A stretch of DNA of 64,000 nt from Candidatus Omnitrophota bacterium (GTDB lineage Bacteria > Omnitrophota > Gorgyraeia > Gygaellales > Profunditerraquicolaceae), in the NCBI GenBank assembly GCA_050012075.1, contig JBEKHW010000003.1:14690-78689 (forward strand). The letters run 5' to 3'. The translations under genes were made by a program, and so were the position numbers. This document shows positions 3,115 to 64,000 of the stretch, piece after piece. The notes beneath the pieces were generated by a model. The model was not told the origin of the DNA. It did not search any database and worked only from the letters and a program-made list of their open reading frames with translations. Within the stretch, counting starts at the first letter, position 1; each line of letters starts with the position of its first letter.

Positions 3115-4968
3115 TTAAAATTCCACCTTTGCCCCGCCAGTAAAAGAAAATCCGGGCATTGGATAGTCATGTATGACCTGGTATTTCCGGTTTAAGAGGT
3201 TATCTATATAGGCAAAACAGGTAACTCCGTGGTTAAATTTCTTTGATACGCTAAGCCCCAGGACAAAGAAATCCTTTACTTTGATTGTATTTTTCGCGTC
3301 AGCGAATCTTATGCCGGTAAATTGCCCTTTAAGTTCAGCTGTTAGCCCGTTATGGTCGCTATATTTTAAAGAAGAGTCGATCTTATAGTTCGGCTGATAG
3401 ACAAGATATTTATGCGTATTCTCATCCTTGGCGATTAAATAACTATAGTCGATTTTTAAATCGAGATTATCGGCTATGGATACAGTATTCTCAAGCTCCA
3501 ATCCGTCGATTGCCGCAGTGTTGATATTCTCCGGTTGCGTCATCCCGGTGGATGCGTCATAAGACCATTGTATAAGCTCTTTATAATTGCTATGGTAATA
3601 AGTCAATCCCGAAGTAAGGTATTTGTTGATTATTATATCGGCCCCGACTTCTTCGGTTAACCCTTTTTCCGGTTTTAGATTAGAGTTTCCTTTTAAACCA
3701 TCTCCCATATCCGGCCAATACAGGTCGTTAAATGTAGGGACACGGAAAGAACGGCTGACCAGGCCGTGGAATTTAACCGCGTTATTGAATTTATAGAGGA
3801 GGCTTATGGCTGGATCGACCTCTGTCCCGAAGTTGGAGTAATCATCTATGCGCGCGCTTAAATTAATATTCAGCTTGTCATCCAGCATGCCTAAGCGGTT
3901 TTCAAGGTATCCGGAGCGCAGGCTGTATTCATGTTTTGCGGTAGACGTACTGTCATTTAAATTCTTTGCGTAATCAAAACCGTAAACAAGGCTGTAGTAT
4001 TCGGAAAGTTGATTGTCAAGCTGCAGGTTAAACCCTCGCACCGTAGTGGCATGGATATCTTTTTCATTAGCAGTTTCCCAGGGCAACTCTGCGTTATTTT
4101 CCATAAATTCCAGCCGGTTGTAATTCTGGTAAGCTTTGACCAGGATCCCCGTTTGTTCATTTGGTTTAAAGCTCCAGTTTAAATCAAAGAAACGCTCCAG
4201 GGTATTTTGCTTGTCGTCAGGATCGGGATAGGTTAGTGAGCCGGGTACGCCTACGCGGCTTGTATAAAAACCGGAGTTAAGGCTGATATTGTTTTGGCTG
4301 TTGAGCTCATATTCCAATTTGAGATTGGAATCTTTGGCATTTAGAGCTGAATTCTGCCGGAAACCCTCTGAACTTTGGTATCCACCGCTTAAAAGGTAAC
4401 CGAATTTTGAAACCTTAGCCCCATATGACATACGCTCAATATATGTGCGGGCAGTGCCGAAACTTGAATAAAGTTCTGCTTCCTGGCCGGAGATTGGCGG
4501 TTTTTTGGTAATGATATTTACCACTCCCCCCATTGCCGAGCTGCCATATAAGCTTGAACCAGGGCCATGCATCACCTCAACCTTGGCTATATTATCCAGG
4601 GGTATAGTGGATAGGTCTATCTCCCCGTCCCTAGGGTTATTTATCGGCCTGCCATCAATCAGGACCAGGACTTGAGCAGCGGTAGAGCCGCGCATCCTGA
4701 TTGTTTTTGTGGCACTGGGACCGCCGTAATCGCTTATATCAACGGACGTAAGGTCAGTAAGTGTATCAGCCAGGTTTTGCGTCCCGCTCTTCTCCATCTC
4801 CGTAGACGTAACTACATCCACGTTACGCGAGAGATTCCCAGGGTATTCTTCTACTCTTGAAGCCGTAACCACTATTTTATCCAGGTCAACATTTTCTGCC
4901 CTGACAATTCCCGGTAAAGCAAAAAGCAATAACCATAAAACAAGCGAATTTTTATTAATATTTTTCAT
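3115..4968 (-). CDS. btuB: TonB-dependent outer-membrane receptor, likely cobalamin transporter BtuB
   Basis: 617 aa with a signal peptide, a TonB box (DKIVVTASR), a plug domain, beta-barrel and a C-terminal aromatic residue. It is preceded by a cobalamin riboswitch and adjacent to the cob/btu operon. Confidence 0.8.
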   Translation of the reverse strand: MKNINKNSLVLWLLLFALPGIVRAENVDLDKIVVTASRVEEYPGNLSRNVDVVTSTEMEKSGTQNLADTLTDLTSVDISDYGGPSATKTIRMRGSTAAQVLVLIDGRPINNPRDGEIDLSTIPLDNIAKVEVMHGPGSSLYGSSAMGGVVNIITKKPPISGQEAELYSSFGTARTYIERMSYGAKVSKFGYLLSGGYQSSEGFRQNSALNAKDSNLKLEYELNSQNNISLNSGFYTSRVGVPGSLTYPDPDDKQNTLERFFDLNWSFKPNEQTGILVKAYQNYNRLEFMENNAELPWETANEKDIHATTVRGFNLQLDNQLSEYYSLVYGFDYAKNLNDSTSTAKHEYSLRSGYLENRLGMLDDKLNINLSARIDDYSNFGTEVDPAISLLYKFNNAVKFHGLVSRSFRVPTFNDLYWPDMGDGLKGNSNLKPEKGLTEEVGADIIINKYLTSGLTYYHSNYKELIQWSYDASTGMTQPENINTAAIDGLELENTVSIADNLDLKIDYSYLIAKDENTHKYLVYQPNYKIDSSLKYSDHNGLTAELKGQFTGIRFADAKNTIKVKDFFVLGLSVSKKFNHGVTCFAYIDNLLNRKYQVIHDYPMPGFSFTGGAKVEF

Positions 4969-5120: not shown

Positions 5121-5153
5121 TTCTCGTTGTAGAAAATTTCTGCCAGAAAGATT

Positions 5154-5828
5154 TTATGCGTATTTTTTAATATCTAAGAACCAATGCCTCCAGAAACTTT
5201 CCTTAATTACAGGTTCGGCCTCCAATATTTTAATCGGCCTCCTGAATATTGGCCCATCAACCACTAATGTATGGAACTCGCCTTTCTCCCCACAGGGACA
5301 GATACCTCTTTTTTTAAGTTCTTCGACTAAACTTTTATCGATATAGCGGCCAAGAAACTCCTTGCCCATTATGTCTGCCTTACAGCTGACAATAATGGCC
5401 TTAAATCCGGCACTTATGAACTCGTCAATAATATTATCCGGCGGTCTGTTCCAGAGCGGCTCCAGGGCTTTAATATTTAAATCGCCGCAGACGCGCTCAA
5501 TCCAGCTTTCGTGTTCCAACAGGTATATATCCCCGAAGACCATCGTTTGGATATCGCTACCTCTTAGTTCGGTAACTGCAGCTTTAAATTCTTCCTCATA
5601 TTTTTTCATGTCTGGGCTGACTTCTTTTTGCACGAGCGGTATGCCGATTAAATCCGCCTGAAACTTAAGTAGCTTTCCCTCGAGCCCATGAAAACAACCG
5701 CGTTTTGATTCGCGGGAAATAAAGTTTAAAAGCATCCTTACGTTATAGCCCTGCTGGATTGCCTTATAACAAGCCAGGCAACTATCTTTGCCTCCGCTCC
5801 AGGAAGATATCGCTCTAATACTATCCAT
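5154..5828 (-). CDS. PP-loop ATP pyrophosphatase, diphthine-ammonia ligase-like (MJ0570/DUF71 family)
   Basis: 224 aa with an SGGKDS PP-loop motif near the N-terminus. It overlaps the cobS stop by 8 nt, so it looks translationally coupled as the last gene of the cob operon. Confidence 0.7.
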   Translation of the reverse strand: MDSIRAISSWSGGKDSCLACYKAIQQGYNVRMLLNFISRESKRGCFHGLEGKLLKFQADLIGIPLVQKEVSPDMKKYEEEFKAAVTELRGSDIQTMVFGDIYLLEHESWIERVCGDLNIKALEPLWNRPPDNIIDEFISAGFKAIIVSCKADIMGKEFLGRYIDKSLVEELKKRGICPCGEKGEFHTLVVDGPIFRRPIKILEAEPVIKESFWRHWFLDIKKYA

Positions 5829-7678: not shown

Positions 7679-8194
7679 CTATTTTATTCTTAAGGGTATC
7701 CCCGATACCATAAAGAATACTTTCCTGGATTCTTTTGCCAGTATTTGATTTACCCTGCCGGCGATATCGCGAAAATCCCTACTCAGTTTATTATCCGGGA
7801 CTATCCCTAGGCCGACTTCATTAGAAACTAAGATTATCCTTGCTTTCTTTTTCTTCAACTGCCTAAGGACCGCGCAGATTTTATTTATAATCTCCTTTTC
7901 CTTATTCCCGCAGAGAATAAGGTTAGAAACTAAAAGAGTAATACAGTCAATGATGATGCATTCAGACTTATTCCCCATCCTGCTCAATATTTTTTCTACT
8001 TCTTTCGGCTCCTCAAAGGTTTTCCAACTCTTTGGCCGGGATATTTTATGTTTAAGAATACGCTCTTTCATTTCCTTATCCCGCCCCTGACAGGTGGCAA
8101 TAAAAGCCACTTTCTTATGCTTTTTAGCCAAGCCCACAGCATAAGTGCTCTTGCCGCTCCTTGCCCCTCCTAAAACCAGGATTATTTTACCCAT
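7679..8194 (-). CDS. cobU: Bifunctional adenosylcobinamide kinase / adenosylcobinamide-phosphate guanylyltransferase
   Basis: 171 aa with a P-loop GGARSGKS and CobU/CobP-family organisation. Confidence 0.85.
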   Translation of the reverse strand: MGKIILVLGGARSGKSTYAVGLAKKHKKVAFIATCQGRDKEMKERILKHKISRPKSWKTFEEPKEVEKILSRMGNKSECIIIDCITLLVSNLILCGNKEKEIINKICAVLRQLKKKKARIILVSNEVGLGIVPDNKLSRDFRDIAGRVNQILAKESRKVFFMVSGIPLRIK

Positions 8195-8214
8195 TTTTAC
8201 CTCGAATATTCTTT

Positions 8215-8808
8215 TTAGTCCTCAAGGGGACCCACCCCTGCTTTGATTTGAAAACCGTTCCTGGAATGGTTGACTATAGTTATTGTTCCCGCGGCGGGAA
8301 CATAGCGCCAGAAATTACAGCTTTTTAATATGCTGCTTAGGAAAATACCGATGACTCCTCCATGACAGACAATGGCAATCGTTTTTCCCGGGTTAACCCG
8401 CAGGATCTTTTTTATGGCAGAATTGACCCTTTTTTTAAATTCATCCATCTTTTCTGCCTTCGGTATGCGGTTAGAATAAGGGTTTTTCAACCATTCGCGG
8501 TAAATCTTCCCGTATTTTTTTATGATTTCTTCATGGTGCAACCCTTCCAGGACCCCGAAATTAATCTCCCTTAAGGCCTGTACTTTAGTAATCTTTCTTT
8601 TACAAAAGATTATGCGTGCGCTTTCGAGCGCCCGTTTTTTATTGCTTGAATAAAACCGGTCAATCTCGATTCCCTTGAGAAGCCGGCGCAATTTTCTTGC
8701 CTGTTCCCTGCCCTGCCGGCTTAATGGGATATCCCTGTGCCCGCAGTAGCGCCGCTGGATATTCCATTGCGTTATCCCGTGCCGTATCAATATTAAGCGT
8801 GTAGGCAT
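8215..8808 (-). CDS. cobC: Alpha-ribazole phosphatase (histidine phosphatase family)
   Basis: 197 aa with the RHG catalytic motif (LILIRHGITQWN), in cob operon context. Confidence 0.75.
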   Translation of the reverse strand: MPTRLILIRHGITQWNIQRRYCGHRDIPLSRQGREQARKLRRLLKGIEIDRFYSSNKKRALESARIIFCKRKITKVQALREINFGVLEGLHHEEIIKKYGKIYREWLKNPYSNRIPKAEKMDEFKKRVNSAIKKILRVNPGKTIAIVCHGGVIGIFLSSILKSCNFWRYVPAAGTITIVNHSRNGFQIKAGVGPLED

Positions 8809-10555: not shown

Positions 10556-11432
10556 TTTTAGGGTACAGCCTTTTGTAAATTTCTCGTAAGCCCTCGGTTA
10601 TCCTTGGCCCGGGCCTTAGCAAAATATCGGGGTTTATATCATTAAACACCCGTTTGTTCCTTACGGCATTGATATCCGACCAGCCGAAACGGCCGGCAAC
10701 CAGTTTCAACGGCATTTCTCTATCCATGTAAGCCAGTATGATGCAGTCCGGGTTAGCATTAACCACTTTTTCAGCGCTATAGTTACTGTATGGCCTAGTG
10801 AGGTCATACGCGATGTTTATGCCGCCTGCCAGGGTAATTAACTCGTCGATAAACGAACCTCTGCCTGCAGTCATCAGGGGGTCACGCCAGATTTCAACAA
10901 AAACTTTTGCTTTCTTGCCCTGCTGGATAGCACTTACCTTAGAAGTTACTGCTTTAATATCCCTTCTCATATTATCTATTAATACTGCGGCTTCCCTGGA
11001 TTTGCCGGTGATTCTTGCTATCTCGCTGATAGAATTAAGTAATTCCTCGATATTTGAAGGGTCAGAAACAAATACCTTTAATTTAAGCCGCCTTAATTCT
11101 CTTATAACCGGAGCCTGCTCCAGGCCGGTACAGAAGATGTAATCGGCCTTAAGGGATAGTATCTTTTCTATACTGGGATGGCTGAAATCCCCAACCCTTG
11201 GTTTATTTTTTACAGCCGGAGGGTAATTGCAATAGGAGCTTATTCCCACAATTTCTTCGTTTAGGCCTAATGCAAAAAGTATCTCTGTTGTTGAAGGCGC
11301 CAGGGAAATATATCTTGCTGCTGCCTGCGCCTTGCTTAAAAATAAAAGAATAAATACCGCGGTTAAGATTATTTTTTTCACAGGATAGCGCAAATAAAAA
11401 ACCCGCCACTTTTTCTGGCGGGTCGCACCCAA
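10548..11432 (-). CDS. btuF: Periplasmic cobalamin/siderophore-binding protein (BtuF-like)
   Basis: Class III substrate-binding protein with a signal peptide KKIILTAVFILLFLSKAQA. The true start may be the GTG at 11381. Confidence 0.75.
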   Translation of the reverse strand: MGATRQKKWRVFYLRYPVKKIILTAVFILLFLSKAQAAARYISLAPSTTEILFALGLNEEIVGISSYCNYPPAVKNKPRVGDFSHPSIEKILSLKADYIFCTGLEQAPVIRELRRLKLKVFVSDPSNIEELLNSISEIARITGKSREAAVLIDNMRRDIKAVTSKVSAIQQGKKAKVFVEIWRDPLMTAGRGSFIDELITLAGGINIAYDLTRPYSNYSAEKVVNANPDCIILAYMDREMPLKLVAGRFGWSDINAVRNKRVFNDINPDILLRPGPRITEGLREIYKRLYPKND

Positions 11433-25205: not shown

Positions 25206-25602
25206 CTTCGGCTTTGGTTTCGTCAGGTCCCTTGGAGCAAAGTTTATAATCCTTATCAGCGCTGCTGATCAGCTCATATTCATAATCCCTTCCCCAGGGG
25301 TCTTTGGGTTCTTTTTTCAGGTAAGGGCCTTTCCATCCGGCTACTCCGGGGTTTGTCCTTAACTCCTGTAAACTGTTAGGGAAATGCCCTGTATCCATTT
25401 CAAACATATCCAGGCCCAGGGCGATACTACCCTGTATATCAGATTTTGCCGCGGTAACACGCGCCTGCTCCGAGCGGCCGACAAGCCGCGGCATAACCAT
25501 TGCCGCAAGTATGCCTATGATGATTACGACGAGCATAAGTTCAATCAAGGTAAATCCGTTCGCGTTGTGGGTTGTGGGTTGTGGGTTGTGCGTTTTATTC
25601 AT
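25189..25602 (-). CDS. gspG: Type II secretion major pseudopilin GspG
   Basis: G|FTLIELMLVVIIIGILAAMVMPRL followed by the GspG-specific SDIQGSIALGLDMFEMDTGHFP. The leader (MNKTHNPQPTTHNANG) is unusually long. Confidence 0.8.
   Translation of the reverse strand: MNKTHNPQPTTHNANGFTLIELMLVVIIIGILAAMVMPRLVGRSEQARVTAAKSDIQGSIALGLDMFEMDTGHFPNSLQELRTNPGVAGWKGPYLKKEPKDPWGRDYEYELISSADKDYKLCSKGPDETKAEDDICN
25564..25591 (-). repeat. Heptanucleotide tandem repeat (GTTGTGG on plus, CCACAAC on minus), about 4 copies inside the gspG leader-peptide codons
   Basis: gttgtgg gttgtgg gttgtgg gttgtgc read directly from the sequence. It encodes HNPQPTTHNA. Confidence 0.8.
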
Positions 25603-25966
25603 TAGGGCCTCCTTCTACTGCTTGGATAAATTTATTAAGCTTTCTGCCTAGTTTATCATACTCTTCTAAGAAATACGCGTATTGTTCTTTATCCTGCATA
25701 GATTTCGTTCCAAATAATAACTGTAAATGTTCAATAGTTTCATTACATGAAGAATGTGCGAATATTAAGAATCTTGCATATTCTTGAGGATACTTCTTGC
25801 GCCCAAAACCCTCTACGATATTAGCTGAGATTGCCTTGGCTGATCTGCGTATCTGTGAACCTTCTTCATACATTTCTAATTGAGGCAACTTTAATGTCAT
25901 GCTATGTATCTCAACAGCTAGCTTGTGCGCAAGTTGGTATATTTCTAAATCGCTATAATTCTGCAT
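25595..25966 (-). CDS. Four-helix-bundle protein (TIGR02436 / 23S rRNA-intervening-sequence protein family)
   Basis: About 123 aa (MQNYSDLEIYQLAHKLAVEIH...SAKAISANIVEGFGR...ETIEHLQ). It sits between gspF and gspG. The ATG at 25966 is preferred over the track start. Confidence 0.7.
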   Translation of the reverse strand: MQNYSDLEIYQLAHKLAVEIHSMTLKLPQLEMYEEGSQIRRSAKAISANIVEGFGRKKYPQEYARFLIFAHSSCNETIEHLQLLFGTKSMQDKEQYAYFLEEYDKLGRKLNKFIQAVEGGPNE

Positions 25967-26017
25967 ATATATTTTTTCTACGCCTAACGCATGACGCATA
26001 ACGCCTAACGCACAACG

Positions 26018-27226
26018 CTATTTTACGATTAAGTTGATTTGGAAAATGGGCAGTAACATCGACAGGACAATAAACCCGACGACAATCCCCATTACCAGGA
26101 TTATCACCGGCTCAAGCAGCCGTGTCAGCGCCTTAATAGTCCTTTGGGTATCCTTTTCGTATTCATTGGCAATGCGTAAAAGCGATTTATCCAGAGAGCC
26201 GGTTTCTTCTCCGATCGCGGTTATATTAGTCACAAATTCCGGGAAAAGCCCGGAGTCCCTAAAACAGGTATACAGAGTTGCTCCGTCGGCAATCTTACTT
26301 TTGATTTTTTTCATTTCCTCTTTTAAAACCTGGTTATCCAATACCGTAGCTGATATATCAAGCGCGGAGGTAATCGGGATTCCGCTGCCAAGCAATAAAG
26401 AAAGCGTGCGGCTCAAGCGTCCTATTTCGGTCTTTAAAATAATCGGGCCAAAGAGCGTCATTTTCAGCTTGAACCTGTCTACGGATAACCTTCCCTGCGG
26501 GCTGCGGTATAGCCGCTGGTATACGAAAATCAATAGTGAAACCATGATGATGATAAGCCACCAGTAACCGCGTATAAAAGCCGAAGTAGAAATCAGGAGT
26601 TGCGTGGGTAAAGGCAGGGCTTGTCCCATATCTTCAAACATACTTACGAGGCGTGGTATGACGAATACCAGTAACACTATTACGGTAGCGATACCTACGC
26701 AAAGGACAAAAAGCGGGTAAGTTAAACTCGCACGCAGGGAATTCCTGAATTCGTCCTGCTCCTCCAGGAAATCGGAAAGCTCCTTAAGGGCGCTGTTTAA
26801 TTTACCGCTGGACTCTCCCGTGTGCAGTATAGAAGTATATAAATCAGAGAAAGTATTTCTATGAGTGGATAAACTTTCTGAAAGCGAGCTGCCGTTCCTG
26901 ATTTTGTCAATGACGTCTTTGAGTAATTCTTTTAAATACCTGTTATCGGTTTGTTTGGTGAGGATATTAAGGGCGTTGACTATGTTTATCCCTGAATCTA
27001 TCAGACTTGAAAGCTGCCGGGTAAAAAGCACAAGGTCCTTGCTTGAAACTTTTTTGAAGCCAAATGTTTTTTTGGATGCCAGGGCAAGGGTTGTGGGAGT
27101 TACCGAGACAGGAAAAAGCTGCATCCCGGACAATTTATGAATGGCGTCCTGTTCTGATTCTGCTTCTATCTCTCCTTGGATAATTTTATTCGGCGCGGAT
27201 TTTGCGGTATAGGTATATGTGGGCAT
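26018..27226 (-). CDS. gspF: Type II secretion / T4P inner-membrane platform protein GspF/PilC
   Basis: 402 aa with two T2SSF repeats and three TM helices. Confidence 0.85.
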   Translation of the reverse strand: MPTYTYTAKSAPNKIIQGEIEAESEQDAIHKLSGMQLFPVSVTPTTLALASKKTFGFKKVSSKDLVLFTRQLSSLIDSGINIVNALNILTKQTDNRYLKELLKDVIDKIRNGSSLSESLSTHRNTFSDLYTSILHTGESSGKLNSALKELSDFLEEQDEFRNSLRASLTYPLFVLCVGIATVIVLLVFVIPRLVSMFEDMGQALPLPTQLLISTSAFIRGYWWLIIIMVSLLIFVYQRLYRSPQGRLSVDRFKLKMTLFGPIILKTEIGRLSRTLSLLLGSGIPITSALDISATVLDNQVLKEEMKKIKSKIADGATLYTCFRDSGLFPEFVTNITAIGEETGSLDKSLLRIANEYEKDTQRTIKALTRLLEPVIILVMGIVVGFIVLSMLLPIFQINLIVK

Positions 27227-56379: not shown

Positions 56380-56880
56380 TTAGACCTTTAGTTCTCCGTA
56401 CTTCTTATAATAATTAATAATGCCGCCCGCATTAAGCAATTCCTGCATAAATTTGGGGAAAGCAGTTACGGAAAGTTCAACATTGCGGGAAAGATTCTTT
56501 ACAACCCCTTTATCAAGGTCAACTTCAACCTGGTCGGCCTCACCTATTTTGTCGGTGTCAGTTTCTACCAGTAGCAGGCCTATATTAAAAGCATTGCGGT
56601 AAAAAATCCTGGCGAATGACTTGGCTAATACCGCCGTAATTCCGGCTTCTTTTATTACGAGGGGAGCCTGCTCGCGCGAGGAACCCATTCCGAAATTTTT
56701 TCCTGTTACTAGAATGGTTTTTCCAGGCTTAATCTTGGAAGCAAATGCGGGGTCAATATCTTCCATAATATGCTTGCTCAGTTCTTTTATATCGGTGATA
56801 GCGAATTTATACCTTCCGGAAATAATAAAATCCGTGTTGATATTGTCTGCGAGTTTTATCGCTTCTCCAGATATCTTCAT
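56380..56880 (-). CDS. leuD: 3-isopropylmalate dehydratase small subunit (type 2)
   Basis: 166 aa with DNINTDFIISGRY and GKNFGMGSSREQAP motifs. Confidence 0.8.
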   Translation of the reverse strand: MKISGEAIKLADNINTDFIISGRYKFAITDIKELSKHIMEDIDPAFASKIKPGKTILVTGKNFGMGSSREQAPLVIKEAGITAVLAKSFARIFYRNAFNIGLLLVETDTDKIGEADQVEVDLDKGVVKNLSRNVELSVTAFPKFMQELLNAGGIINYYKKYGELKV

Positions 56881-57923
56881 AGTTGTTTGAACTCTTCGAT
56901 ATCCTTTACTTTTGCCATGGCAGTATCAAGAGTAATTACTCCCCTTTGCACCAGCTCTTTCAGGGATTTGTCCATAGTTTTCATCCCGTATTGGGAGCCG
57001 GTCTGCATAAGAGTGGGTATCTGCTCAAGCTCCTGCTCGCGGATAAGGTTTCTTATACCAGAGGTAGCAATCATTATTTCGGTTGCCAGGACTCGGCCTT
57101 TTCCCGAAGCATGCGGCAATAAAAGCTGGGAAACCACTGCCTGAAGGCAGTCAGACAGCTGGAGCCTGACCTGTTGTTGTTGGTGAGGCGGGAAAACATC
57201 AATAATCCTTTCAATAGTCTGGGGTGCATCAGGAGTATGCAGGGTGGCCAAAACTAAATGGCCTGTTTCTGCGGCAGTTAAAGCCGTGGAAATTGTTTCC
57301 AGGTCGCGCATTTCTCCTACCACGATAACATTGGGGTCCTGCCTTAATGCGTGGCGCAGGGCTTCTGAAAAGGAGCGGGTATCGGCGAAAACCTCTCTTT
57401 GCTTGATAATGCTTTTTTTATTGGTAAAAATAAATTCGATAGGGTCCTCTATGCTTATGATGAGGCATTCCCTTTCATGATTAATCAGGTTAATCATTAC
57501 CGCAAGGGAGGTTGTTTTACCCATGCCGGTCGGGCCGGTAATCAAAACCAGGCCGTTAGATTTACGAGCCAGCTCCGGTATAATCGGCGGTAACCCCAGT
57601 TCATGTATAGAAGGTATTTCCAGGGGCACGCGCCTGAATGCGGCCTCAGCTGACCCTTTCTGCACGTGCAGATTCACCCTGAAGCGGTCAAGGCTTGGCA
57701 GGGCCAATGAGAAATCCAGTTCTAATTCTCTTTCGAATTTTTCTTTTTGTAAATCAGTTAAAGCTGTATAAATAAGCCTTTTTAGCTCATTCCTGTTTAA
57801 AGTAGCAAAACCTGTCCTGAAGATTTTTCCGTCTATACGTAAGATAGGCGGTTCATTTTCAGTCAGATGCAGATCCGAAGCCTTTTTATCGATACATAGT
57901 AAAAGCAGATCGCGCAGTTCCAT
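56877..57923 (-). CDS. pilT: Type IV pilus retraction ATPase PilT
   Basis: Walker A GPTGMGKTTS and PilT-specific sequence (AHLVLATLHT-like GHLVLATLHT). Confidence 0.85.
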   Translation of the reverse strand: MELRDLLLLCIDKKASDLHLTENEPPILRIDGKIFRTGFATLNRNELKRLIYTALTDLQKEKFERELELDFSLALPSLDRFRVNLHVQKGSAEAAFRRVPLEIPSIHELGLPPIIPELARKSNGLVLITGPTGMGKTTSLAVMINLINHERECLIISIEDPIEFIFTNKKSIIKQREVFADTRSFSEALRHALRQDPNVIVVGEMRDLETISTALTAAETGHLVLATLHTPDAPQTIERIIDVFPPHQQQQVRLQLSDCLQAVVSQLLLPHASGKGRVLATEIMIATSGIRNLIREQELEQIPTLMQTGSQYGMKTMDKSLKELVQRGVITLDTAMAKVKDIEEFKQL

Positions 57924-57933
57924 AGTTTACCTC

Positions 57934-58016
57934 CTTATTTAGTTCATGGTTCATAGCGGATAGTTCATAGTAAGATATTTTACCATGAACCATTAACTAT
58001 GAACAATGAACTAACT
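57934..58016 (-). repeat. About 83 bp palindromic GTTCAT/ATGAAC-rich intergenic element (copy A), in the pilT leader
   Basis: Sequence cttatttagttcatggttcatagcggatagttcatagtaagatattttaccatgaaccattaactatgaacaatgaactaactac. It contains the inverted repeats ATGGTTCAT/ATGAACCAT and is roughly 75 percent identical to the element at 62046-62118. Confidence 0.7.
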
Positions 58017-59286
58017 ACATAAATTCTCTTGGGTCGCTTATGTATCCCTTTAATGCGGAAGCTACTACCGTAGCCGGTGACGCCAGATAAATAAAAGCAT
58101 TGGGATTACCCATCCGGCCTTTGAAATTCCTGTTAGCTGTAGAAATAACAGTTTCTCCATCGGCAGGCACACCGTTATGCGTGCCTACGCACGGCCCGCA
58201 GCCGGGTGCCACAATCACAGCCCCTGCCCTGACAAATATATCGATGTAGCCTGCTTTTATGGTATCAAGATAAATCTGCCGGGAGCTGGGGGCAACGATC
58301 ATTTTTATTCCGGCGTAAACCTTCCTGCCTTTTAAAATTTGCGCGGCAACTTTAAAGTCATCCAGGCGCGCATTGGTGCATGTCCCCAGAAATGCCTCGT
58401 TTATCTTTATATCCCCTAGATCCCTTACCTCTTTCACATTATCCACGCTATGAGGGCAGGAGACCTGCGGGGCCAGTTTCGATATGTCGAATTTAATTGT
58501 TTTCTCATATTCCGCATCCTTATCGGCAATAACCGGTTTTAGATCCCTTGATTTAAGCATCCTCATCTTTAGCCACTTAAGAGTTTTCTTATCCGCAGGA
58601 ATAAAACCACACTTAGCACCCATCTCAACCAGCATATTGCAGATCGTGAAGCGTCCGTCCATATCCAGCTTATCAATCACTGGCCCGTAGAATTCCATAG
58701 ATTTGTAAGTAGCGCCGTCAGCTTTCAATGTATATATTATATGCAAAATTATGTCTTTTGCATAGATTCCTTTTGGTATATTGCCCTCTACTATTATCTT
58801 TATGGTTTGCGGAACCTTAAACCAGTTTTTTCCTGTCGCCAGGGCAATCGCAAGGTCGGTCGAACCGACACCTGTTGAGAGGGCACCAAGCGCCCCGTAA
58901 GTGCAGGTATGAGAGTCCGCGCCCAACACTAGATCGCCAGGAAGGATCTGTCCTGATTCCGGTATGACCTGGTGGCATACGCCGCAGCCGATATCAAATA
59001 AATCAAACCCATATTTATTGCTGGAATCGCGCATTTTCTTATGGACAGCTGAAACGCCTTCACTTGGGGAAGGCGCGCTATGGTCTATTACCATGCAAAA
59101 TCTGGTCTTTAATTCTTTCAGGCCAAGTTCATTTATGCGGTCAATGATTATGGCGGAAGTGCCATCCTGGCCAAAAGCAAAATCGACCCTGCATATTGCG
59201 AAATCGCCGGCTTTTAAATCCCTGCCGGCATGTCCGCTTAAAATTTTTTCCGCTATCGTTTTCTGGTTCATAACGTGTTCAGCCAC
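58015..59286 (-). CDS. leuC: 3-isopropylmalate dehydratase large subunit (type 2, aconitase family)
   Basis: 423 aa with Fe-S ligand Cys motifs (CNARLDDF... GTCTN, PGCGPCVG) and the aconitase fold. Confidence 0.85.
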   Translation of the reverse strand: MAEHVMNQKTIAEKILSGHAGRDLKAGDFAICRVDFAFGQDGTSAIIIDRINELGLKELKTRFCMVIDHSAPSPSEGVSAVHKKMRDSSNKYGFDLFDIGCGVCHQVIPESGQILPGDLVLGADSHTCTYGALGALSTGVGSTDLAIALATGKNWFKVPQTIKIIVEGNIPKGIYAKDIILHIIYTLKADGATYKSMEFYGPVIDKLDMDGRFTICNMLVEMGAKCGFIPADKKTLKWLKMRMLKSRDLKPVIADKDAEYEKTIKFDISKLAPQVSCPHSVDNVKEVRDLGDIKINEAFLGTCTNARLDDFKVAAQILKGRKVYAGIKMIVAPSSRQIYLDTIKAGYIDIFVRAGAVIVAPGCGPCVGTHNGVPADGETVISTANRNFKGRMGNPNAFIYLASPATVVASALKGYISDPREFM

Positions 59287-60443
59287 TCCTCTAACCTGTC
59301 CATCCCCTTCTGGAGCTGTTCTATGTTCGTCGCAAAGCTGATGCGCACGTAATCGTCCCTGCCAAATCCATCCCCGGGTATAATGCTGACGTATTTTTCT
59401 TCCAGCAGCCGCTGTGCAAAAACAGATGAGCTGATCCCTGTTTTGCCAATGTTGCAGAAAATATAAAAAGCGCCCTCGGGCTTATATAAACCAATCCCTT
59501 TCATTTTAGACAGCCTCTGGATGCAAAAATCCCTTCTTTTTTGGAATTCCTGGGCCAATTTTTTAATAAACTCCTCCTGGCTGCTTAACGCTTCAATGCC
59601 TGCTTTCTGCGCAATGGAATTGGGGCAAGATGTGGAATGGTCCTGTAGGCGTGACACTGCCTCCGCTATATCGGGTGCCGCACCCAGATAACCGAGGCGC
59701 CATCCGGTCATGGAATAGCTTTTTGAAAATCCGTTTATAGTTACAGTGAGGCCGTAGATATCCTTATTGAGGCTTGCGATAGAACAATGTTTGAGGTTGT
59801 CGTAAATCAGCTTCTCATATATTTCATCGCTTAAAACAAAGATTCTTTTCTTTACGCAAATTTGCGCTATTTTTTCCAGTTCCTCTTTCGTGTAAACGCA
59901 TCCCGTAGGGTTGGAGGGGCTGTTTAAAATCAGGGCTTTTGTTTTCTTGGTAATATGTTTTTCCAGATCACGCTCCGTGATTTTAAAACCATTCTCCGGT
60001 TGGGTATCTATAAAACGCGGTACCCCGTCGCAAAGATTGACCATTTCAGGGTAGCTGACCCAATAAGGCACAGGTATCAGCACTTCATCTTGCCTGCTTA
60101 CCAGTACAAAAAGGGCGTTAAAAATACTGTGTTTTGCGCCGCAGGAGACAACTATCTGTTCCGGGGTATATATAAGGGAATTATCCTTGCGGAATTTCTC
60201 GCAGATAAGCTTTTTTAACTCGGGGATACCTGTGGTGGGCGTGTATTTGGTAAATCCGCTCTTGATTGCCGTAATGGCCGCATCTTTTACCGCGAGAGGA
60301 GTGTCGAAATCAGGTTCTCCGGCAGCGAGATTCACTATATCTTTTCCTTCGGATTTGAGCTTCTTGGCTTTTGAGGTTATCGAGAGTGTCGGGGAGGGCT
60401 TTATCTTTCTTAGGCGTTCGGATAAACGTATCTCTATACGCAT
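59268..60443 (-). CDS. PLP-dependent aminotransferase class I (aspartate aminotransferase-like)
   Basis: LAAGEPDFDTP and SKSYSMTGWRLGY (PLP-binding Lys). Confidence 0.8.
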   Translation of the reverse strand: MRIEIRLSERLRKIKPSPTLSITSKAKKLKSEGKDIVNLAAGEPDFDTPLAVKDAAITAIKSGFTKYTPTTGIPELKKLICEKFRKDNSLIYTPEQIVVSCGAKHSIFNALFVLVSRQDEVLIPVPYWVSYPEMVNLCDGVPRFIDTQPENGFKITERDLEKHITKKTKALILNSPSNPTGCVYTKEELEKIAQICVKKRIFVLSDEIYEKLIYDNLKHCSIASLNKDIYGLTVTINGFSKSYSMTGWRLGYLGAAPDIAEAVSRLQDHSTSCPNSIAQKAGIEALSSQEEFIKKLAQEFQKRRDFCIQRLSKMKGIGLYKPEGAFYIFCNIGKTGISSSVFAQRLLEEKYVSIIPGDGFGRDDYVRISFATNIEQLQKGMDRLEEWLNTL

Positions 60444-60474
60444 AGCTCGCAGCTCTTATGGATTGATTCTTGAA

Positions 60475-61035
60475 TTATAAGGAATCTCTTTCCTTTTTAA
60501 AGATATTCCTTATCCCTCCCAGGAACTTCTTTGTCGGTTTCTTGGCGGCAGAGGGTTTTTCTTGAACACCTACGGCTGTTTCGGGCTTTTTCTTTTCAGG
60601 TGCCTTTTCTTCGGTTTTTTCCGGGGAAGGCAGTTTTTCCTCTTTCTCTTTCTTGGGTAATGGGCGCTCTTTCTTTTTTATTTCCGTCAGTTCCAATAAT
60701 GCCAAGGTAGCATTATCGCCTCGCCGGGGCCCTAAAGTGATGATCCTGGTATAGCCGCTGTTTCTTTTCTCGAAAAGAGGGCCGGTTTCCGTAAATAACC
60801 TGGAAACGAGTGTATGGTCGCTTAGAATACTGAAAGCGCGTCTTTTCGCGCTTAAGGTATTCTCTTTAGCGAGACTGATCAATTTTTCTGCCAGCGGCCT
60901 TGCTGCCCTGGCTTTGCTTAAGGTGGTCTTTATACTTTGGTGTATTAAGAGGTTTCTTGCCAGCGATATGGTTGTGGCTTTTTGCCAGCTTGTAAAACGG
61001 TTTAATAAAAGCCCTTTTTTCTTTTTATGTCTCAT
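60475..61035 (-). CDS. rplQ: 50S ribosomal protein L17 with a Lys/Glu-rich C-terminal extension
   Basis: MRHKKKKGLLLNRFTSWQKATTISLARNLL... Confidence 0.85.
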   Translation of the reverse strand: MRHKKKKGLLLNRFTSWQKATTISLARNLLIHQSIKTTLSKARAARPLAEKLISLAKENTLSAKRRAFSILSDHTLVSRLFTETGPLFEKRNSGYTRIITLGPRRGDNATLALLELTEIKKKERPLPKKEKEEKLPSPEKTEEKAPEKKKPETAVGVQEKPSAAKKPTKKFLGGIRNIFKKERDSL

Positions 61036-61040
61036 TTGTC

Positions 61041-62033
61041 TTAAGCCTTCTTTAGTTTTTTAGAATCGATCTGCATGCCGAGCGAAAGCGCCATACCTGC
61101 AAGCAGGTCTTTAATTTCAGTCAACGATTTCTTTCCAAAATTCTTAAAGTCGAGCATTTCATCTTCGTTTTTCCTCACCAGGTCGGCGATTATCTTGATA
61201 TTCGCTTCCCTGAGGCAATTGGAGCTCCTGACCGATAGTTCCAGTTCCGAGATAGGCAGGCGCAGCTTCTCATACAGCGAAACCTCTTCTTTCGTCATCT
61301 CCGGTTCTTCCTCGATAATATCTTCTGGGAGGGAACCAAAATTAACGAATATATCCAGATGCCTCTGCAGTATATTGGAAGCGTAGAGCAACGCGTCTTT
61401 GGGGCTGATCGCGCCATTTGTCCAAATTTCTATCATAAGCTTGTCGTAATCGGTCCTCTGCCCCACACGCGTATTCTCCACGTAAAAATTTACTTTCCTA
61501 ACCGGGCTAAAAATTGAATCTATCGGGATTACACCTATGGTGGTATCTTCCTTTTTATTCAATTCCGCCGTGACATAACCCCTGCCCCTGGCTACTTCCA
61601 TCTCCATGTTAAATTTCACGTCCTTGGTGAGGGTGGCAATATGCAAATCAGGATTATTTATTTCTATGGTTTCATCAACCGCTATATCTTTCGCCTTTAT
61701 TTCCCCTTTTGCGTTCTTCTTTATATAAATTGTCTTCGGGATCTTGGAATGCGAATTGATAATCAGGCTCTTGACGTTAAGTATTATTTCCGGTACGTCT
61801 TCCAGGATTCCCGGCAAAGCGGAAAATTCATGTTCTGCCCCGGCAATCTTGACTGAGGTTACGGCACTGCCTTCGATAGATGAAAGCAATACGCGCCTTA
61901 AGGAATTGCCCAGCGTTACCCCATAGCCCTTTTCGAAAGGTGCCGCCGAGAATTTCCCGTACGTATCTGTATAGGTTGACTCATCGCATTCTAGCCTCTT
62001 CGGTAACTGGAAATCGTGCCACTTTATGCCCAT
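61041..62033 (-). CDS. rpoA: DNA-directed RNA polymerase subunit alpha
   Basis: 330 aa with N-terminal, dimerisation and C-terminal domains and conserved motifs. Confidence 0.9.
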   Translation of the reverse strand: MGIKWHDFQLPKRLECDESTYTDTYGKFSAAPFEKGYGVTLGNSLRRVLLSSIEGSAVTSVKIAGAEHEFSALPGILEDVPEIILNVKSLIINSHSKIPKTIYIKKNAKGEIKAKDIAVDETIEINNPDLHIATLTKDVKFNMEMEVARGRGYVTAELNKKEDTTIGVIPIDSIFSPVRKVNFYVENTRVGQRTDYDKLMIEIWTNGAISPKDALLYASNILQRHLDIFVNFGSLPEDIIEEEPEMTKEEVSLYEKLRLPISELELSVRSSNCLREANIKIIADLVRKNEDEMLDFKNFGKKSLTEIKDLLAGMALSLGMQIDSKKLKKA

Positions 62034-62045
62034 TTTGCCCCCCCG

Positions 62046-62118
62046 TTATTTAGTCCATAGTTCATTGTTCATGGTCAGATATTTACTATGAACTATCCAC
62101 TATGAACCAAGAACTATA
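62046..62118 (-). repeat. Palindromic GTTCAT/ATGAAC-rich intergenic element (copy B), between rpsD and rpoA
   Basis: Sequence ttatttagtccatagttcattgttcatggtcagatatttactatgaactatccactatgaaccaagaactatatt. It is homologous to copy A and shares the TTATTTAGT and ACTATGAAC motifs. Confidence 0.7.
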
Positions 62119-62748
62119 TTATTTAGAATAAAGTTCAACTATCAACTGCTCTTCAATCGGCTGCTGGATATCTTCTTTCTCGGGAAGCCGCACTACTTTT
62201 GCCGTAAGAGCTGCGGCGTCAAACTCAAGCCATGAAGGCACGGTTCGTTCCTTTGAAATCTCCAGGTTCTCTTTTATTTTCTTCAAGGCCTTTTCTTTTG
62301 TCTTTACCTGGATAACATCGTCTTTATCTACGGAGTACGAAGGAATATTTACACGCCTGTTGTTTACATGGATATGGTTATGCCGGACAATCTGCCGGGC
62401 TTGTGAGCGGGAGATCGCTATTCCCATACGGAAAATAACATTATCCAGCCTTCTTTCCAGTGACTGTAGCAGCACTTTTCCGGTAACGCCTTTTGTTTTG
62501 GAAGCGATTTTAAAATACCTGCGGAATTGCCTCTCCAGGACCCCGTATATTCTTTTTACTTTTTGTTTTTCCCTTAACTGTAAGCCGTAATTAGAGAGTT
62601 TTGTCCTTCTTCTTTCACCATGCTGCCCGGGCGCATACGGCCTTTTTGCCATAGCGCATTTTTCAGTAGAACAACGGGTACCTTTTAAGAAGAGCTTTTC
62701 ACCCTCTCTCCGGCAAAGCCTGCAAACCGCTTCGATGTATCTGGCCAT
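62119..62748 (-). CDS. rpsD: 30S ribosomal protein S4
   Basis: [23 protein letters not shown]... Confidence 0.9.
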
Positions 62749-62751
62749 TGA

Positions 62752-63141
62752 TTATACTCTCCTTTTTTTCTTAGGACGGCAACCGTTATGAGGAATAGGA
62801 GTCACGTCTTTAATCGCGGTGATAATGAGGCCTGCTGCCTGTAGCGCGCGTATGGCCGATTCCCTACCGAAACCCGGCCCTTTTACCCGCACCTCCACCT
62901 CTTTCATGCCGACTTCTTTTGCCTTTCTTGCTGCGTCAGTTGCCGCGATCTGAGCGGCAAATGGTGTCGATTTCTTTGAGCCGCTGTAGCCGACTACCCC
63001 TGGCGCAGACCAAACCAGCACATTTCCCTCTTTATCGGTAATAGTGATTATAGTATTATTAAAACTTGCCTGTATATGGGCTATGCCCGACGTTATTCCC
63101 TTTGCTATCTTTTTCTTTTTTGCCTTTTCTTTTGTAGCCAT
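62752..63141 (-). CDS. rpsK: 30S ribosomal protein S11
   Basis: 129 aa, S11 family. Confidence 0.9.
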
Positions 63142-63166
63142 CCTGTATACTCCTTATGATTATGGA

Positions 63167-63571
63167 TTATTTCGCCGCAGGTTTTGCTGCAGGTTCTGCT
63201 TTCCTGACTATTGCCGTTCCGCTCTTACGCGGCCCTTTTCTTGTCCTGGCATTGGTACGGGTGCGCTGGCCCCTGACCGGAAGGCCCTTCTTATGCCTGA
63301 AACCCCGCCAGGAACCTATATCCATCAATCTTTTGATATTCTGCTGTATGTCCCTGCGTAGATCACCTTCCAGCTTAAGTCCGCTTTTCTGCAGTGTGCC
63401 GGTTATGCGGGAAATCTCCTCTTCGTTTAAATCCTTTGTCCGCCTGTTAGGTTCAATGCCGGCTTCCTTAAGGATTTTTTTGGAAAGGACGCGGCCGATA
63501 CCGTAAAGATAGGTTAAAGAAATGTCAATCCTTTTGTCTTTTGGTATATCAACACCCATGATCCTTGGCAT
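63167..63571 (-). CDS. rpsM: 30S ribosomal protein S13
   Basis: [26 protein letters not shown]... Confidence 0.9.
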
Positions 63572-63588
63572 AATTACTCCTTAAAATT

Positions 63589-63702
63589 TTATCCTTGTCT
63601 TTGCTTATGTTTTGGATTAGTGCAAATTACGCGCAGTACACCTCTTCTTTTAATTATTTTGCACTTGTCGCAGATTTTTCTGATGGACGCTTTTACCTTC
63701 AT
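63589..63702 (-). CDS. rpmJ: 50S ribosomal protein L36, 37 aa (below the ORF-track cutoff)
   Basis: Manual translation gives [37 protein letters not shown]. Confidence 0.85.
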
Positions 63703-63703
63703 T

Positions 63704-63922
63704 TTATTTGACCCTGAAAGTTATCCTTCCCCTGTTTAGATCATACGGTGAAAGCTCCAGCTTCACCTTGTCTCCCGGAAGAATCCTGATGAAGTTCATG
63801 CGCATTTTTCCGGAGACATGCGCCAGGACCATGTGCCCGTTTTCCAATTGTACTTTAAACATGGCATTCGGCAATGCTTCAGTTATTGTGCCTTCCGTTT
63901 CAATCAGCTCTTCCTTTGCCAT
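63704..63922 (-). CDS. infA: Translation initiation factor IF-1
   Basis: [41 protein letters not shown]... Confidence 0.9.
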
Positions 63923-63923
63923 A

Positions 63924-64000
63924 TTATTTTGTTAAAATTTCAGGGCCTTTCTCCGTAATCGCGACGGTATGCTCAAAATGCGCAGAGGCAAGCCCGTCTT
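63924..64000 (-). CDS. map: Methionine aminopeptidase, C-terminal fragment (the rest lies beyond the window end)
   Basis: Manual translation of the minus strand gives ...[24 protein letters not shown]. Confidence 0.7.

Follow-up and report, generated by a model that had tools for sequence, protein, structure and literature searches.

Inverted heptamer arrays upstream of pilT and rpoA are probably copies of a dispersed palindromic repeat family in Candidatus Omnitrophota

Introduction

Two intergenic spacers in a Candidatus Omnitrophota metagenome-assembled genome (MAG) hold look-alike palindromes of roughly 80 bp, which raises the question of what kind of sequence could occupy both places. 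The two lie in one window, by which we mean the whole stretch analysed, 64 kb of contig JBEKHW010000003.1. The first element, E1, separates a gene for the large subunit of an aconitase/HacA/LeuC-family enzyme from pilT. The second, E2, separates rpsD from rpoA in the alpha operon. The host assignment is consistent with RpoA, whose homologs at 83-90% identity all come from Omnitrophota. A preliminary description of the locus had offered three readings of the pair: a mobile repeat resembling repetitive extragenic palindromic (REP) sequences or miniature inverted-repeat transposable elements (MITEs), an RNA leader or thermosensor, and a shared operator.

We favour the first of these, with a probability of about 0.6: E1 and E2 would be two copies of a dispersed, MITE/REP-like family of palindromic repeats of about 75-80 nucleotides (nt) in a clade of Candidatus Omnitrophota. 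The evidence fits an element that behaves as a selfish or neutral insertion would, and not as a switch dedicated to a gene. Heptamer repeats next to start codons have been on record for Cyanobacteria since 1990, and for Beggiatoaceae and Bacteroidetes since 2015. The family is a member of this already described and poorly understood class; what is new is that inverted heptamer arrays are dispersed as a unit, and that the host phylum is Omnitrophota.

Results

Two copies of one heptamer-built palindrome

E1 and E2 are 73.8% identical when aligned directly and 78.3% identical when one of them is inverted, in agreement with the figure of about 75% given at the outset. The longest inverted repeat of the whole window joins them (57937-57973 against 62083-62119, 37 nt, 92% identity). 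With at most two mismatches allowed, the window has 15 matches to the motif GTTCATNGTTCAT, where shuffled sequence has 5.35 +/- 2.5; none of 100 shuffles reached 15, and 10 of the 15 matches lie inside E1 and E2. What the preliminary description had not seen is that each arm is an array of three to four tandem heptamers, NGTTCAT in the first arm and then ATGAACN in the second, and that the arms are inverted with respect to each other so as to form a hairpin. Both elements also share two features that depart from the consensus, namely an AGYGGAT unit and the loop GTAAA(A)TATCT. A chance likeness of low-complexity spacers with no common origin might be considered, since both are rich in AT (GC about 0.3) and slippage can create heptamer arrays independently at different sites. 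Such a coincidence deserves hardly any credence: it is ruled out by the 92% arm match, the shuffles, the shared variant unit and loop, and the close copies at unrelated loci described below.

Each element fills the space between the upstream stop codon and the Shine-Dalgarno (SD) sequence of the next gene. The elements were correctly placed upstream of pilT and rpoA on the minus strand, except that TTATTTAGT starts at 57935, one base later than given for the first element; position 57934 is still part of the SD complement CCTCC, as its final C. The gene calls for PilT, RpoA and S4 were confirmed, whereas the gene first labelled leuC is better described as an aconitase/HacA/LeuC-family large subunit. 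In mRNA sense, E1 reads tag-TTAGTTCAT TGTTCAT AGTTAAT GGTTCAT GGTAAAATATCTTAC TATGAAC TATCCGC TATGAAC CATGAAC TAAATAA-GGAGG-taaact-ATG. This is also its canonical orientation, the one with the ATCCGCT variant unit in the 3' arm, and that arm terminates in the mini-frame ATG-AAC-TAA. E2, in mRNA sense, reads taa-TATAGTTCTT GGTTCAT AGTGGAT AGTTCAT AGTAAATATCTGACC ATGAACA ATGAACT ATGGACT AAATAAC-GGGGGGG-caaa-ATG; it is inverted relative to E1, its canonical orientation being antisense to the rpsD-rpoA mRNA. Tandem Repeats Finder reported period 7 at 57985-58011 and 57940-57971 in E1 and at 62051-62072 in the left arm of E2, and an autocorrelation scan flagged E1 for period 7 and no other period. 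A covariance model from family members found E1 and E2 as the sole copies in the window. The scores with model R1 were 95.3 bits on the minus strand and 77.5 bits on the plus strand for E1, and 79.3 bits on the plus strand and 54.8 bits on the minus strand for E2.

The claim that both elements fold into extended hairpins was borne out for E1, which reaches -40.4 kcal/mol on the minus (mRNA) strand with a stem of about 30 bp (z = -7.4) and -30.5 kcal/mol on the plus strand. It applies to E2 in a weaker form, the mRNA strand folding with -21.4 kcal/mol (z = -1.9). In the centroid folds, the SD and AUG of both pilT and rpoA are unpaired; in the minimum-energy fold of E1, the sequence after the SD is contacted by a weak outer helix of 5 bp. 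A thermometer or riboswitch that masks the ribosome-binding site (RBS) is ruled out, as the SDs and start codons lie outside the stems. A permissive Rfam search of positions 56500-64000 gave no family at its gathering score; the best match, to plant microRNA precursor models, scored 27.5 bits against a gathering score of 95, a generic hairpin resemblance that we regard as noise. Counts in a promoter and terminator scan did not exceed those in shuffled sequence, with nothing convincing at E1 or E2. The stems are followed by AAATAAGGAGG and AAATAACGGGG, so that neither has the T-tract of an intrinsic terminator. Against a leader function, the structure is not conserved at the orthologous sites of relatives, and E1 and E2 have opposite orientations with respect to their transcripts. 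Against a shared operator, the genes next to the copies have no function in common, and the closest relative lacks the element upstream of pilT. A dedicated thermosensor, riboswitch or shared operator is thus not supported. Table 1 gives the coordinates.

Table 1. Positions of the two elements, their parts and the flanking signals in the 64-kb window
Feature	Position	Strand	Remarks
E1, complete palindromic heptamer element	57939..58014	minus	91-nt spacer from aconitase-family large subunit gene to pilT
E1 5' arm	57982..58014	minus	mRNA sense TTAGTTCAT TGTTCAT AGTTAAT GGTTCAT GGT; four NGTTCAT-type heptamers
E1 loop region	57972..57981	minus	mRNA sense AAAATATCTT; near-identical loop in E2, L128 and L142
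E1 3' arm	57939..57971	minus	mRNA sense ACTATGAAC TATCCGC TATGAAC CATGAAC TAAA
pilT SD and start codon	57921..57934	minus	SD GGAGG 57930-57934, start codon 57921-57923; both outside hairpin
TAG stop of aconitase-family large subunit gene	58015..58017	minus	directly adjoins E1
E2, second copy	62046..62118	plus (canonical orientation)	fills 85-nt rpsD-rpoA spacer
E2 left arm	62052..62075	plus	AGTCCAT AGTTCAT TGTTCAT GGT
E2 right arm	62085..62118	plus	ACTATGAAC TATCCAC TATGAAC CAAGAAC TATA; bears family-specific ATCCAC variant unit
rpoA SD and start codon	62031..62044	minus	G-rich SD GGGGGGG 62038-62044, start codon 62031-62033; both outside hairpin
TAA stop of rpsD	62119..62121	minus	directly adjoins E2
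Genes of the region	56-64 kb	minus (all)	order rpsM, rpsK, rpsD, rpoA, rplQ, aspartate aminotransferase, aconitase/HacA/LeuC-family large subunit, pilT, matching small subunit, isocitrate/isopropylmalate-type dehydrogenase, malate dehydrogenase

Near-identical copies between unrelated genes

If E1 and E2 are copies of a repeat, further copies should exist elsewhere, and the preliminary description had named this search as its own test. Scanning metagenomes with the best-conserved 20-nt arm, TATGAACTATCCNCTATGAAC, returned 21 stretches, nine of which lie on separate contigs of metagenome Ga0187886; about 1-2 matches would be expected by chance, according to our own estimate, which assumes a collection of about 10^12 bases. 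On two Ga0187886 contigs the elements are 87-92% identical to E1/E2 over 69-84 nt, loop included. The organism carrying them is a second member of the Omnitrophota, placed by GyrA. Its copies sit in the spacers of co-directional housekeeping genes (guaA>dnaE, a homocitrate/isopropylmalate-synthase gene>purA, lspA>lgt and gyrB>gyrA) and also upstream of ilvE and of uppS, and these neighbours share no function. A model from ten copies additionally found a weak ortholog in L122, a full copy in L137 and a half copy in L142. Roughly estimated, the density is one copy per 30-50 kb. Relative to transcription, four copies are sense and seven antisense. This dispersal bears out the REP/MITE-like option among those first proposed. 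A related hairpin element is conserved between a pair of tRNA genes in four independent metagenome contigs (L129, L130, L135 and L138).

The family has a GC content of about 0.3, and nearly all copies have the termini TAGTTCAT...ATGAACTA, which are terminal inverted repeats of the kind found in MITEs. When the copies are oriented so that the ATCCRCT variant lies in the right arm, that arm is near-constant, TTACTATGAACTATCCACTATGAACTATGAACTA, a constancy owed in part to the search, which picked the copies by this arm. The left arm holds two to five GGTTCAT units and differs between copies by entire heptamers. In the canonical orientation, G-U (or G-T) pairs join GGTTCAT to ATGAACT; on the other strand these become A-C mismatches, which is why E1 folds better on one strand. 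The covariation test on ten copies gave no compensatory pairs, the copies being too similar and selected via one arm.

Repeats of this kind also matter in practice. They break metagenome assemblies: at the gyrB/gyrA junction, two contigs stop within the element (L133 1-30 and L141 1-61). They can mislead gene callers as well, because the repeats bring in TAG and ATG triplets that act as stop codons or may be taken for starts.

Filled and empty orthologous sites

We compared five Omnitrophota relatives (L122-L126) at the orthologous sites. The aconitase-pilT spacer measures 29 nt in L126, the closest relative at this site, 57 nt in L123, 18 nt in L124 and 160 nt in L125. No E1 occurs in the 29-nt L126 spacer, which reads CAAAAACACAAAAATAGAGGAGGTAAATTatg where the window has ...GAACTAAATAAGGAGGTAAACTatg; E1 is therefore lineage-specific. 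The spacers of L123, L124 and L125 hold unrelated hairpins or none, and those of L124 and L126 are without a hairpin. At rpsD-rpoA, where the preliminary description had suggested comparing spacer lengths, the range is 47-164 nt. L122, the closest relative here with about 79% DNA identity, has a 90-nt spacer with a decayed E2 ortholog (4651-4730; 24.4 bits with R1; fold -18 kcal/mol, z = -1.5). Elsewhere the element was not recovered: the 47-nt spacer of L123 holds a small unrelated hairpin, the 51-nt spacer of L124 nothing convincing, and the 164-nt spacer of L125 a long inverted repeat of other heptamer-like units. E2 is thus older than E1 and decaying in the closest relative. In closer strains, gene coordinates give spacers of 91 nt and 86 nt at the E1 and E2 sites.

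A second pair of a filled and an empty site comes from the gyrB-gyrA junction and adds to the case for a REP/MITE-like repeat. In L148 (5989-6000) the junction is empty, a 12-nt spacer reading TAA-AAGAAGGAAAAT-ATG, and GyrA is 91% identical; in Ga0187886 it is filled and reads TAA-C-TAGTTCAT...ATGAACTA-AAAC-ATG. The GAAGGA SD present in the empty L148 site has been lost from the filled one. The pairs are 9-10% divergent in the flanking proteins and about 25% divergent in DNA at the pilT site, too much for exact junctions.

The signals around the copies are arranged alike. In nearly all of them a stop codon adjoins the 5' base of the stem and a start codon lies 2-20 nt from the 3' base, and in four Ga0187886 copies the first unit supplies that stop codon with its TAG. 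Of the seven Ga0187886 copies, six precede genes that have no SD, among them gyrA, dnaE and purA. In the copies lacking an SD, the start codon lies 2-5 nt behind the terminal ATGAACTA, which usually reads ATG-AAC-TAA; most copies close with this mini-frame 1-5 nt ahead of the true start. Profile matches confirm the start positions. The pilT and rpoA genes of the window keep a strong SD.

The idea that pilT itself is a recent insertion carried in by E1 is ruled out because the order large subunit-pilT-small subunit is conserved in all five Omnitrophota relatives. In the window (56380-59286), pilT lies between the genes for the large and small aconitase/HacA/LeuC-family dehydratase subunits and overlaps the small-subunit start by 4 nt. 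A contig with P0004 from sample ERZ1426817 carries a PilT at least 90% identical, and there the next gene starts 148 nt downstream with no overlap, which suggests a further insertion at the pilT/small-subunit junction of that strain.

Two further repeats were seen in the relatives. L125 has three copies of another spacer element, ATTCGCACAATAACTTAC...GTTCGTAAGTTATGTGCTCATTT, at 4441-4498, 5152-5267 and 10993-11052; they lie inside the ribosomal-protein/rpoA operon, and the gene caller put starts (atgtgctcattt) within the repeat. L126 has, at 7742-8640, an IS200-like Y1 transposase gene (PF01797; open reading frame (ORF) 7742-8383) between a biotin-lipoyl gene and an HTH_17 gene, which is not in the window. 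This gene has GGGGTCAGATTTAT to one side and three direct copies of AAATCTGACCCCAATTACA to the other. The loop of E2 (AAATATCTGACC) resembles this transposase-flanking repeat, possibly by chance. We ruled out the L126 transposase as the mobiliser of the family: its flanks are GGGGTCAGATTTAT and not GTTCAT arrays, and it has no homolog in the window or at the other loci. In a tblastn search with the Y1_Tnp protein, no match was obtained in the window or in the other loci examined, and so, provisionally, no REP-associated tyrosine transposase (RAYT) accompanies the repeats there.

Neutral passenger or selected hairpin

How could such insertions be tolerated in essential operons? On the reading that we favour, the starting point would be a unit with (N)GTTCAT heptamers in the 5' arm, ATGAAC(N) heptamers in the 3' arm, a short loop and one variant unit, GTGGAT/ATCCAC. 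Such units would be copied entire, loop and variant heptamer included, to new intergenic sites by a MITE/REP-like spread, and the number of heptamers would then shift in steps of seven bases, most likely through replication slippage as in a microsatellite. Copies would persist at sites where the damage is small, in the gap from a stop codon to the next RBS or start, mostly inside operons. Once co-transcribed, an element would add a stable stem-loop to the polycistronic mRNA. Looping out may draw the stop codon of one gene up to the start codon of the next while leaving the start region free, and this geometry may be why insertions survive in the alpha operon and in gyrBA. The consequences for the RNA would probably be neutral to mildly modulatory, through protection of 3' ends, RNase III processing or tighter translational coupling.

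Several points weigh against a dispersed neutral repeat. Only two copies lie in 64 kb. No transposase, RAYT or other mobilising gene was linked to the family in the window or in the other loci examined. No unambiguous target-site duplication can be read either: TA flanks most copies on both sides, but TA is also the junction of consecutive heptamers, and the flanking TA could be part of a heptamer. E2 persists at one site across species about 21% divergent in DNA, and most relatives have some hairpin at these two junctions. Furthermore, six of the seven Ga0187886 copies have replaced the SD of essential genes, which a neutral passenger explains poorly.

These points lead to the alternative of an intercistronic RNA hairpin under selection, in which the stem-loop in the polycistronic mRNA sets the relative expression of the neighbouring cistrons. 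Three routes are conceivable: a barrier to 3' exonucleases, a cleavage site for RNase III, or enforced translational coupling; on the last route, a ribosome terminating at the stop at the stem base would open the stem and hand over to the start at the other base. Such a role is known for the REP hairpins of E. coli operons and for the Correia elements of Neisseria. The long stems, best seen in E1, would suit this role, as would the nearly constant placement of stop and start, the loss of the GAAGGA SD on filling the gyrB-gyrA site, and the mini-frame ATG-AAC-TAA in which most copies end just before the real start. The unrelated hairpins at the same two junctions in relatives, together with the persistence of E2, could indicate selection for a hairpin as such. 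On the other hand, the copies show no preference of orientation although the two strands of E1 fold unequally, no compensatory changes were seen among the ten similar copies, and E2 and its ortholog fold only about 1.5-1.9 standard deviations from shuffled sequence. The aconitase-pilT spacers of L124 and L126 do without any hairpin. We therefore consider a selected hairpin rather unlikely, by whichever of the three routes, while SD loss, E2 persistence and the hairpins in most relatives keep a functional reading alive as a minority prospect.

A more specific version, in which the hairpin substitutes for the RBS, seems improbable. Here the folded element would bring the upstream stop (0-3 nt from the 5' base) beside the start (2-5 nt from the 3' base, behind a terminal AUG-AAC-UAA mini-frame), and ribosomes that have finished the upstream gene would reinitiate across the stem, in analogy with shunting or termination-reinitiation. 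If true, it would explain why SDs were lost at the filled gyrA, dnaE and purA sites in a lineage that uses SDs.

A heptamer class spread over many phyla

The looser pattern GTTCATAGNNNATNGTTCATNGT matched at least 120 genome stretches, where chance alone would give about 17 (our own estimate, from 18 fixed bases and 596 Gb). As it also matches pure (AGTTCAT)n arrays, it shows the breadth of the class and not the copy number in the window's organism. The matches listed come mainly from Mucilaginibacter, Chitinophagaceae, Saprospiraceae, Prevotella and other Bacteroidales, and Cyanobacteria, with a few in Omnitrophota, Ratteibacteria, Poribacteria, Planctomycetota, Nitrospirota, Desulfobacterota and others; many of them are plain direct arrays. 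Across these loci, 125 of 136 arrays (92%) do not overlap a long ORF, and every arrangement of neighbouring genes occurs. Arrays of the hairpin type often fill the whole spacer. Lineages differ in their variant units: GTTGAT in Mucilaginibacter and relatives, GTGCAT in Prevotella and GTGGAT in the Omnitrophota family. Viral contigs gave 26 matches. Six IMG/VR contigs (L149, L158, L159, L169, L170 and L174; GC about 0.25, one labelled a giant-virus MAG) represent the same locus, with about 5-11 ATGAACT/ATAAACT units between near-identical flanks, a clear case of copy-number variation.

Where two arrays face each other within 150 nt, the matches listed show a strict polarity, 34 being GTTCAT...ATGAAC and one the reverse. 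An RBS substitute as described above, if real, would account for this near-invariant order, with TAG-containing units first and ATG-containing units last among the matches listed across phyla. The same polarity, and the same heptamer in distant phyla, can also be taken to suggest sequence-specific recognition over mere slippage. On that reading the heptamers would be iterated sites for a single-strand binder (S1, a cold-shock protein or similar) or for a DNA-binding regulator, as proposed before for the TAACTGA repeats of Beggiatoaceae and the heptamer repeats of Nostoc. In keeping with it, the arrays lie within a few nt of start codons, as reported for TAACTGA (PMC4679880), and a regulatory effect of heptamer repeats has been reported in Nostoc (bioRxiv 10.1101/2022.06.06.494920). 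However, no candidate binding protein was identified, and the neighbouring genes have no function in common. Inverted units are base-paired and so not available to a single-strand binder, and with a spacing of 7 bp the sites in duplex DNA would not all point to the same face. Upstream of pilT in the closest relative, moreover, the element is absent. A protein-binding array is accordingly quite doubtful for the family. A related possibility, undescribed as yet, is that RGTTCAT arrays, both across many phyla and in viruses, serve as the target of some sequence-specific machinery, be it a nuclease/transposase or a protein that binds them.

Other repeats in the window

Two heptamer arrays with other units lie at 25564-25594 and 25980-26018 (in minus sense, CCACAAC x4.4 and TATGCGT x5.6). 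They flank a gene for a 123-residue 23S_rRNA_IVP/four-helix-bundle protein (25595-25966, minus; PF05635, E = 1.6e-26), which sits between a T2SS-F gene and a T2SS-G pseudopilin gene, and the CCACAAC array codes for part of the pseudopilin's unusually long leader (MNKTHNPQPTTHNANGFTLIEL). The idea that heptamer arrays mark the insertion of 23S_rRNA_IVP genes found no support: a tblastn search with a single sequence, which is insensitive, detected no second gene of this type across 1.15 Mb of loci with arrays. A second palindromic repeat, GGGACGnTTCT...GGAAAnGTGTCCCC, occurs at 2300-2378 with arms of 38 nt at 79% identity. A 38-nt relative (87% identical) lies at L123 16755-16792, downstream of an isocitrate-dehydrogenase-like gene, with L125 16879-17052 as a further location. 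This looks like a second intergenic repeat family of the Omnitrophota clade.

Discussion

Our analysis places E1 and E2 most plausibly in a dispersed family of palindromic repeats. With its filled and empty orthologous sites, its insertions in essential operons such as the alpha operon and gyrBA, and its loss of SDs, the family offers junctions at which a neutral insertion can be tested against an effect on the mRNA. How does it compare with repeats described elsewhere?

STRR (short tandemly repeated repetitive) sequences of Cyanobacteria were reportedly described by Mazel in 1990, and Elhai is said to have described small dispersed repeats embedded in heptamer arrays in 2008. In Beggiatoaceae, Cyanobacteria and Bacteroidetes, direct repeats of the heptamer TAACTGA, of unknown function, were described by MacGregor 2015 (PMC4679880). 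Most lie within a few nt of start codons, often without an SD and including ribosomal-protein operons; strains differ by indels in 7-nt steps, and 169 direct sets stand against one inverted (PMC4679880). According to the summary in PMC4679880, Mrazek 2007 found heptamers to be the commonest class of long simple-sequence repeats (LSSRs) in prokaryotes and proposed polymerase slippage. The Omnitrophota arrays resemble these STRR/LSSR/TAACTGA-type repeats in their 7-nt unit, in their short contiguous arrays (tandem, at least three units), which are nearly always intergenic and near start codons, with sites in ribosomal-protein operons and many starts that lack an SD, in their 7-nt-step indels, and in the occurrence of the same heptamer across distant phyla with no known vector. 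They differ in that the unit is RGTTCAT, that an inverted pair with a loop is dispersed as a whole hairpin of about 80 nt, and that the host is an omnitrophote. No circular permutation of RGTTCAT/ATGAACY equals CCCCAGT, TTGGTCA, CAACAGT or TAACTGA, and a full-text literature search for strings of the RGTTCAT arrays gave nothing relevant.

Heptamer arrays with effects on expression are known from two other settings. A Nostoc preprint (bioRxiv 10.1101/2022.06.06.494920) describes heptamer repeats near start codons genome-wide, which affect the expression of recF and recO, and the hmw repeats of Haemophilus influenzae are heptamer simple-sequence repeats in 5' regions that tune expression (PMC12721329). 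As in our family, the arrays lie between a promoter or upstream gene and a start, and the proposed effects act via mRNA structure or processing. Those arrays, however, are direct, at single loci, with copy number as the switch, whereas the Omnitrophota arrays are paired in a hairpin, and we saw no evidence of switching at them.

REPs are described as G+C-rich, 20-40 nt long, with a conserved GTAG or CGTC tag at the 5' end, and tied to a RAYT (Y1) gene flanked by REPs (PMC3733652 and PMC3116915). Our family is likewise a short imperfect palindrome in many dispersed extragenic copies, and it shares with REPs, bacterial interspersed mosaic elements (BIMEs) and REP doublets forming hairpins (REPINs) the operon-internal position, the co-transcribed stem-loops, the occurrence in both orientations and the presence or absence between relatives. 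By contrast with REPs and REPINs, its arms are AT-rich heptamer arrays without a GTAG/CGTC tag, and no RAYT is associated with it.

The Correia elements (Correia repeat enclosed elements, CREE) of Neisseria, MITEs whose transcripts form hairpins, have terminal inverted repeats of unique sequence, a site for integration host factor (IHF), outward promoters and a demonstrable TA duplication. The likeness lies in a length of about 80-150 nt, terminal inverted repeats, TA at both ends, a place next to genes and co-transcription; both kinds of element fold into long stems and could be substrates of RNase III. Correia elements differ in not being built of tandem heptamers, and in the Omnitrophota family the TA is inseparable from a partial heptamer.

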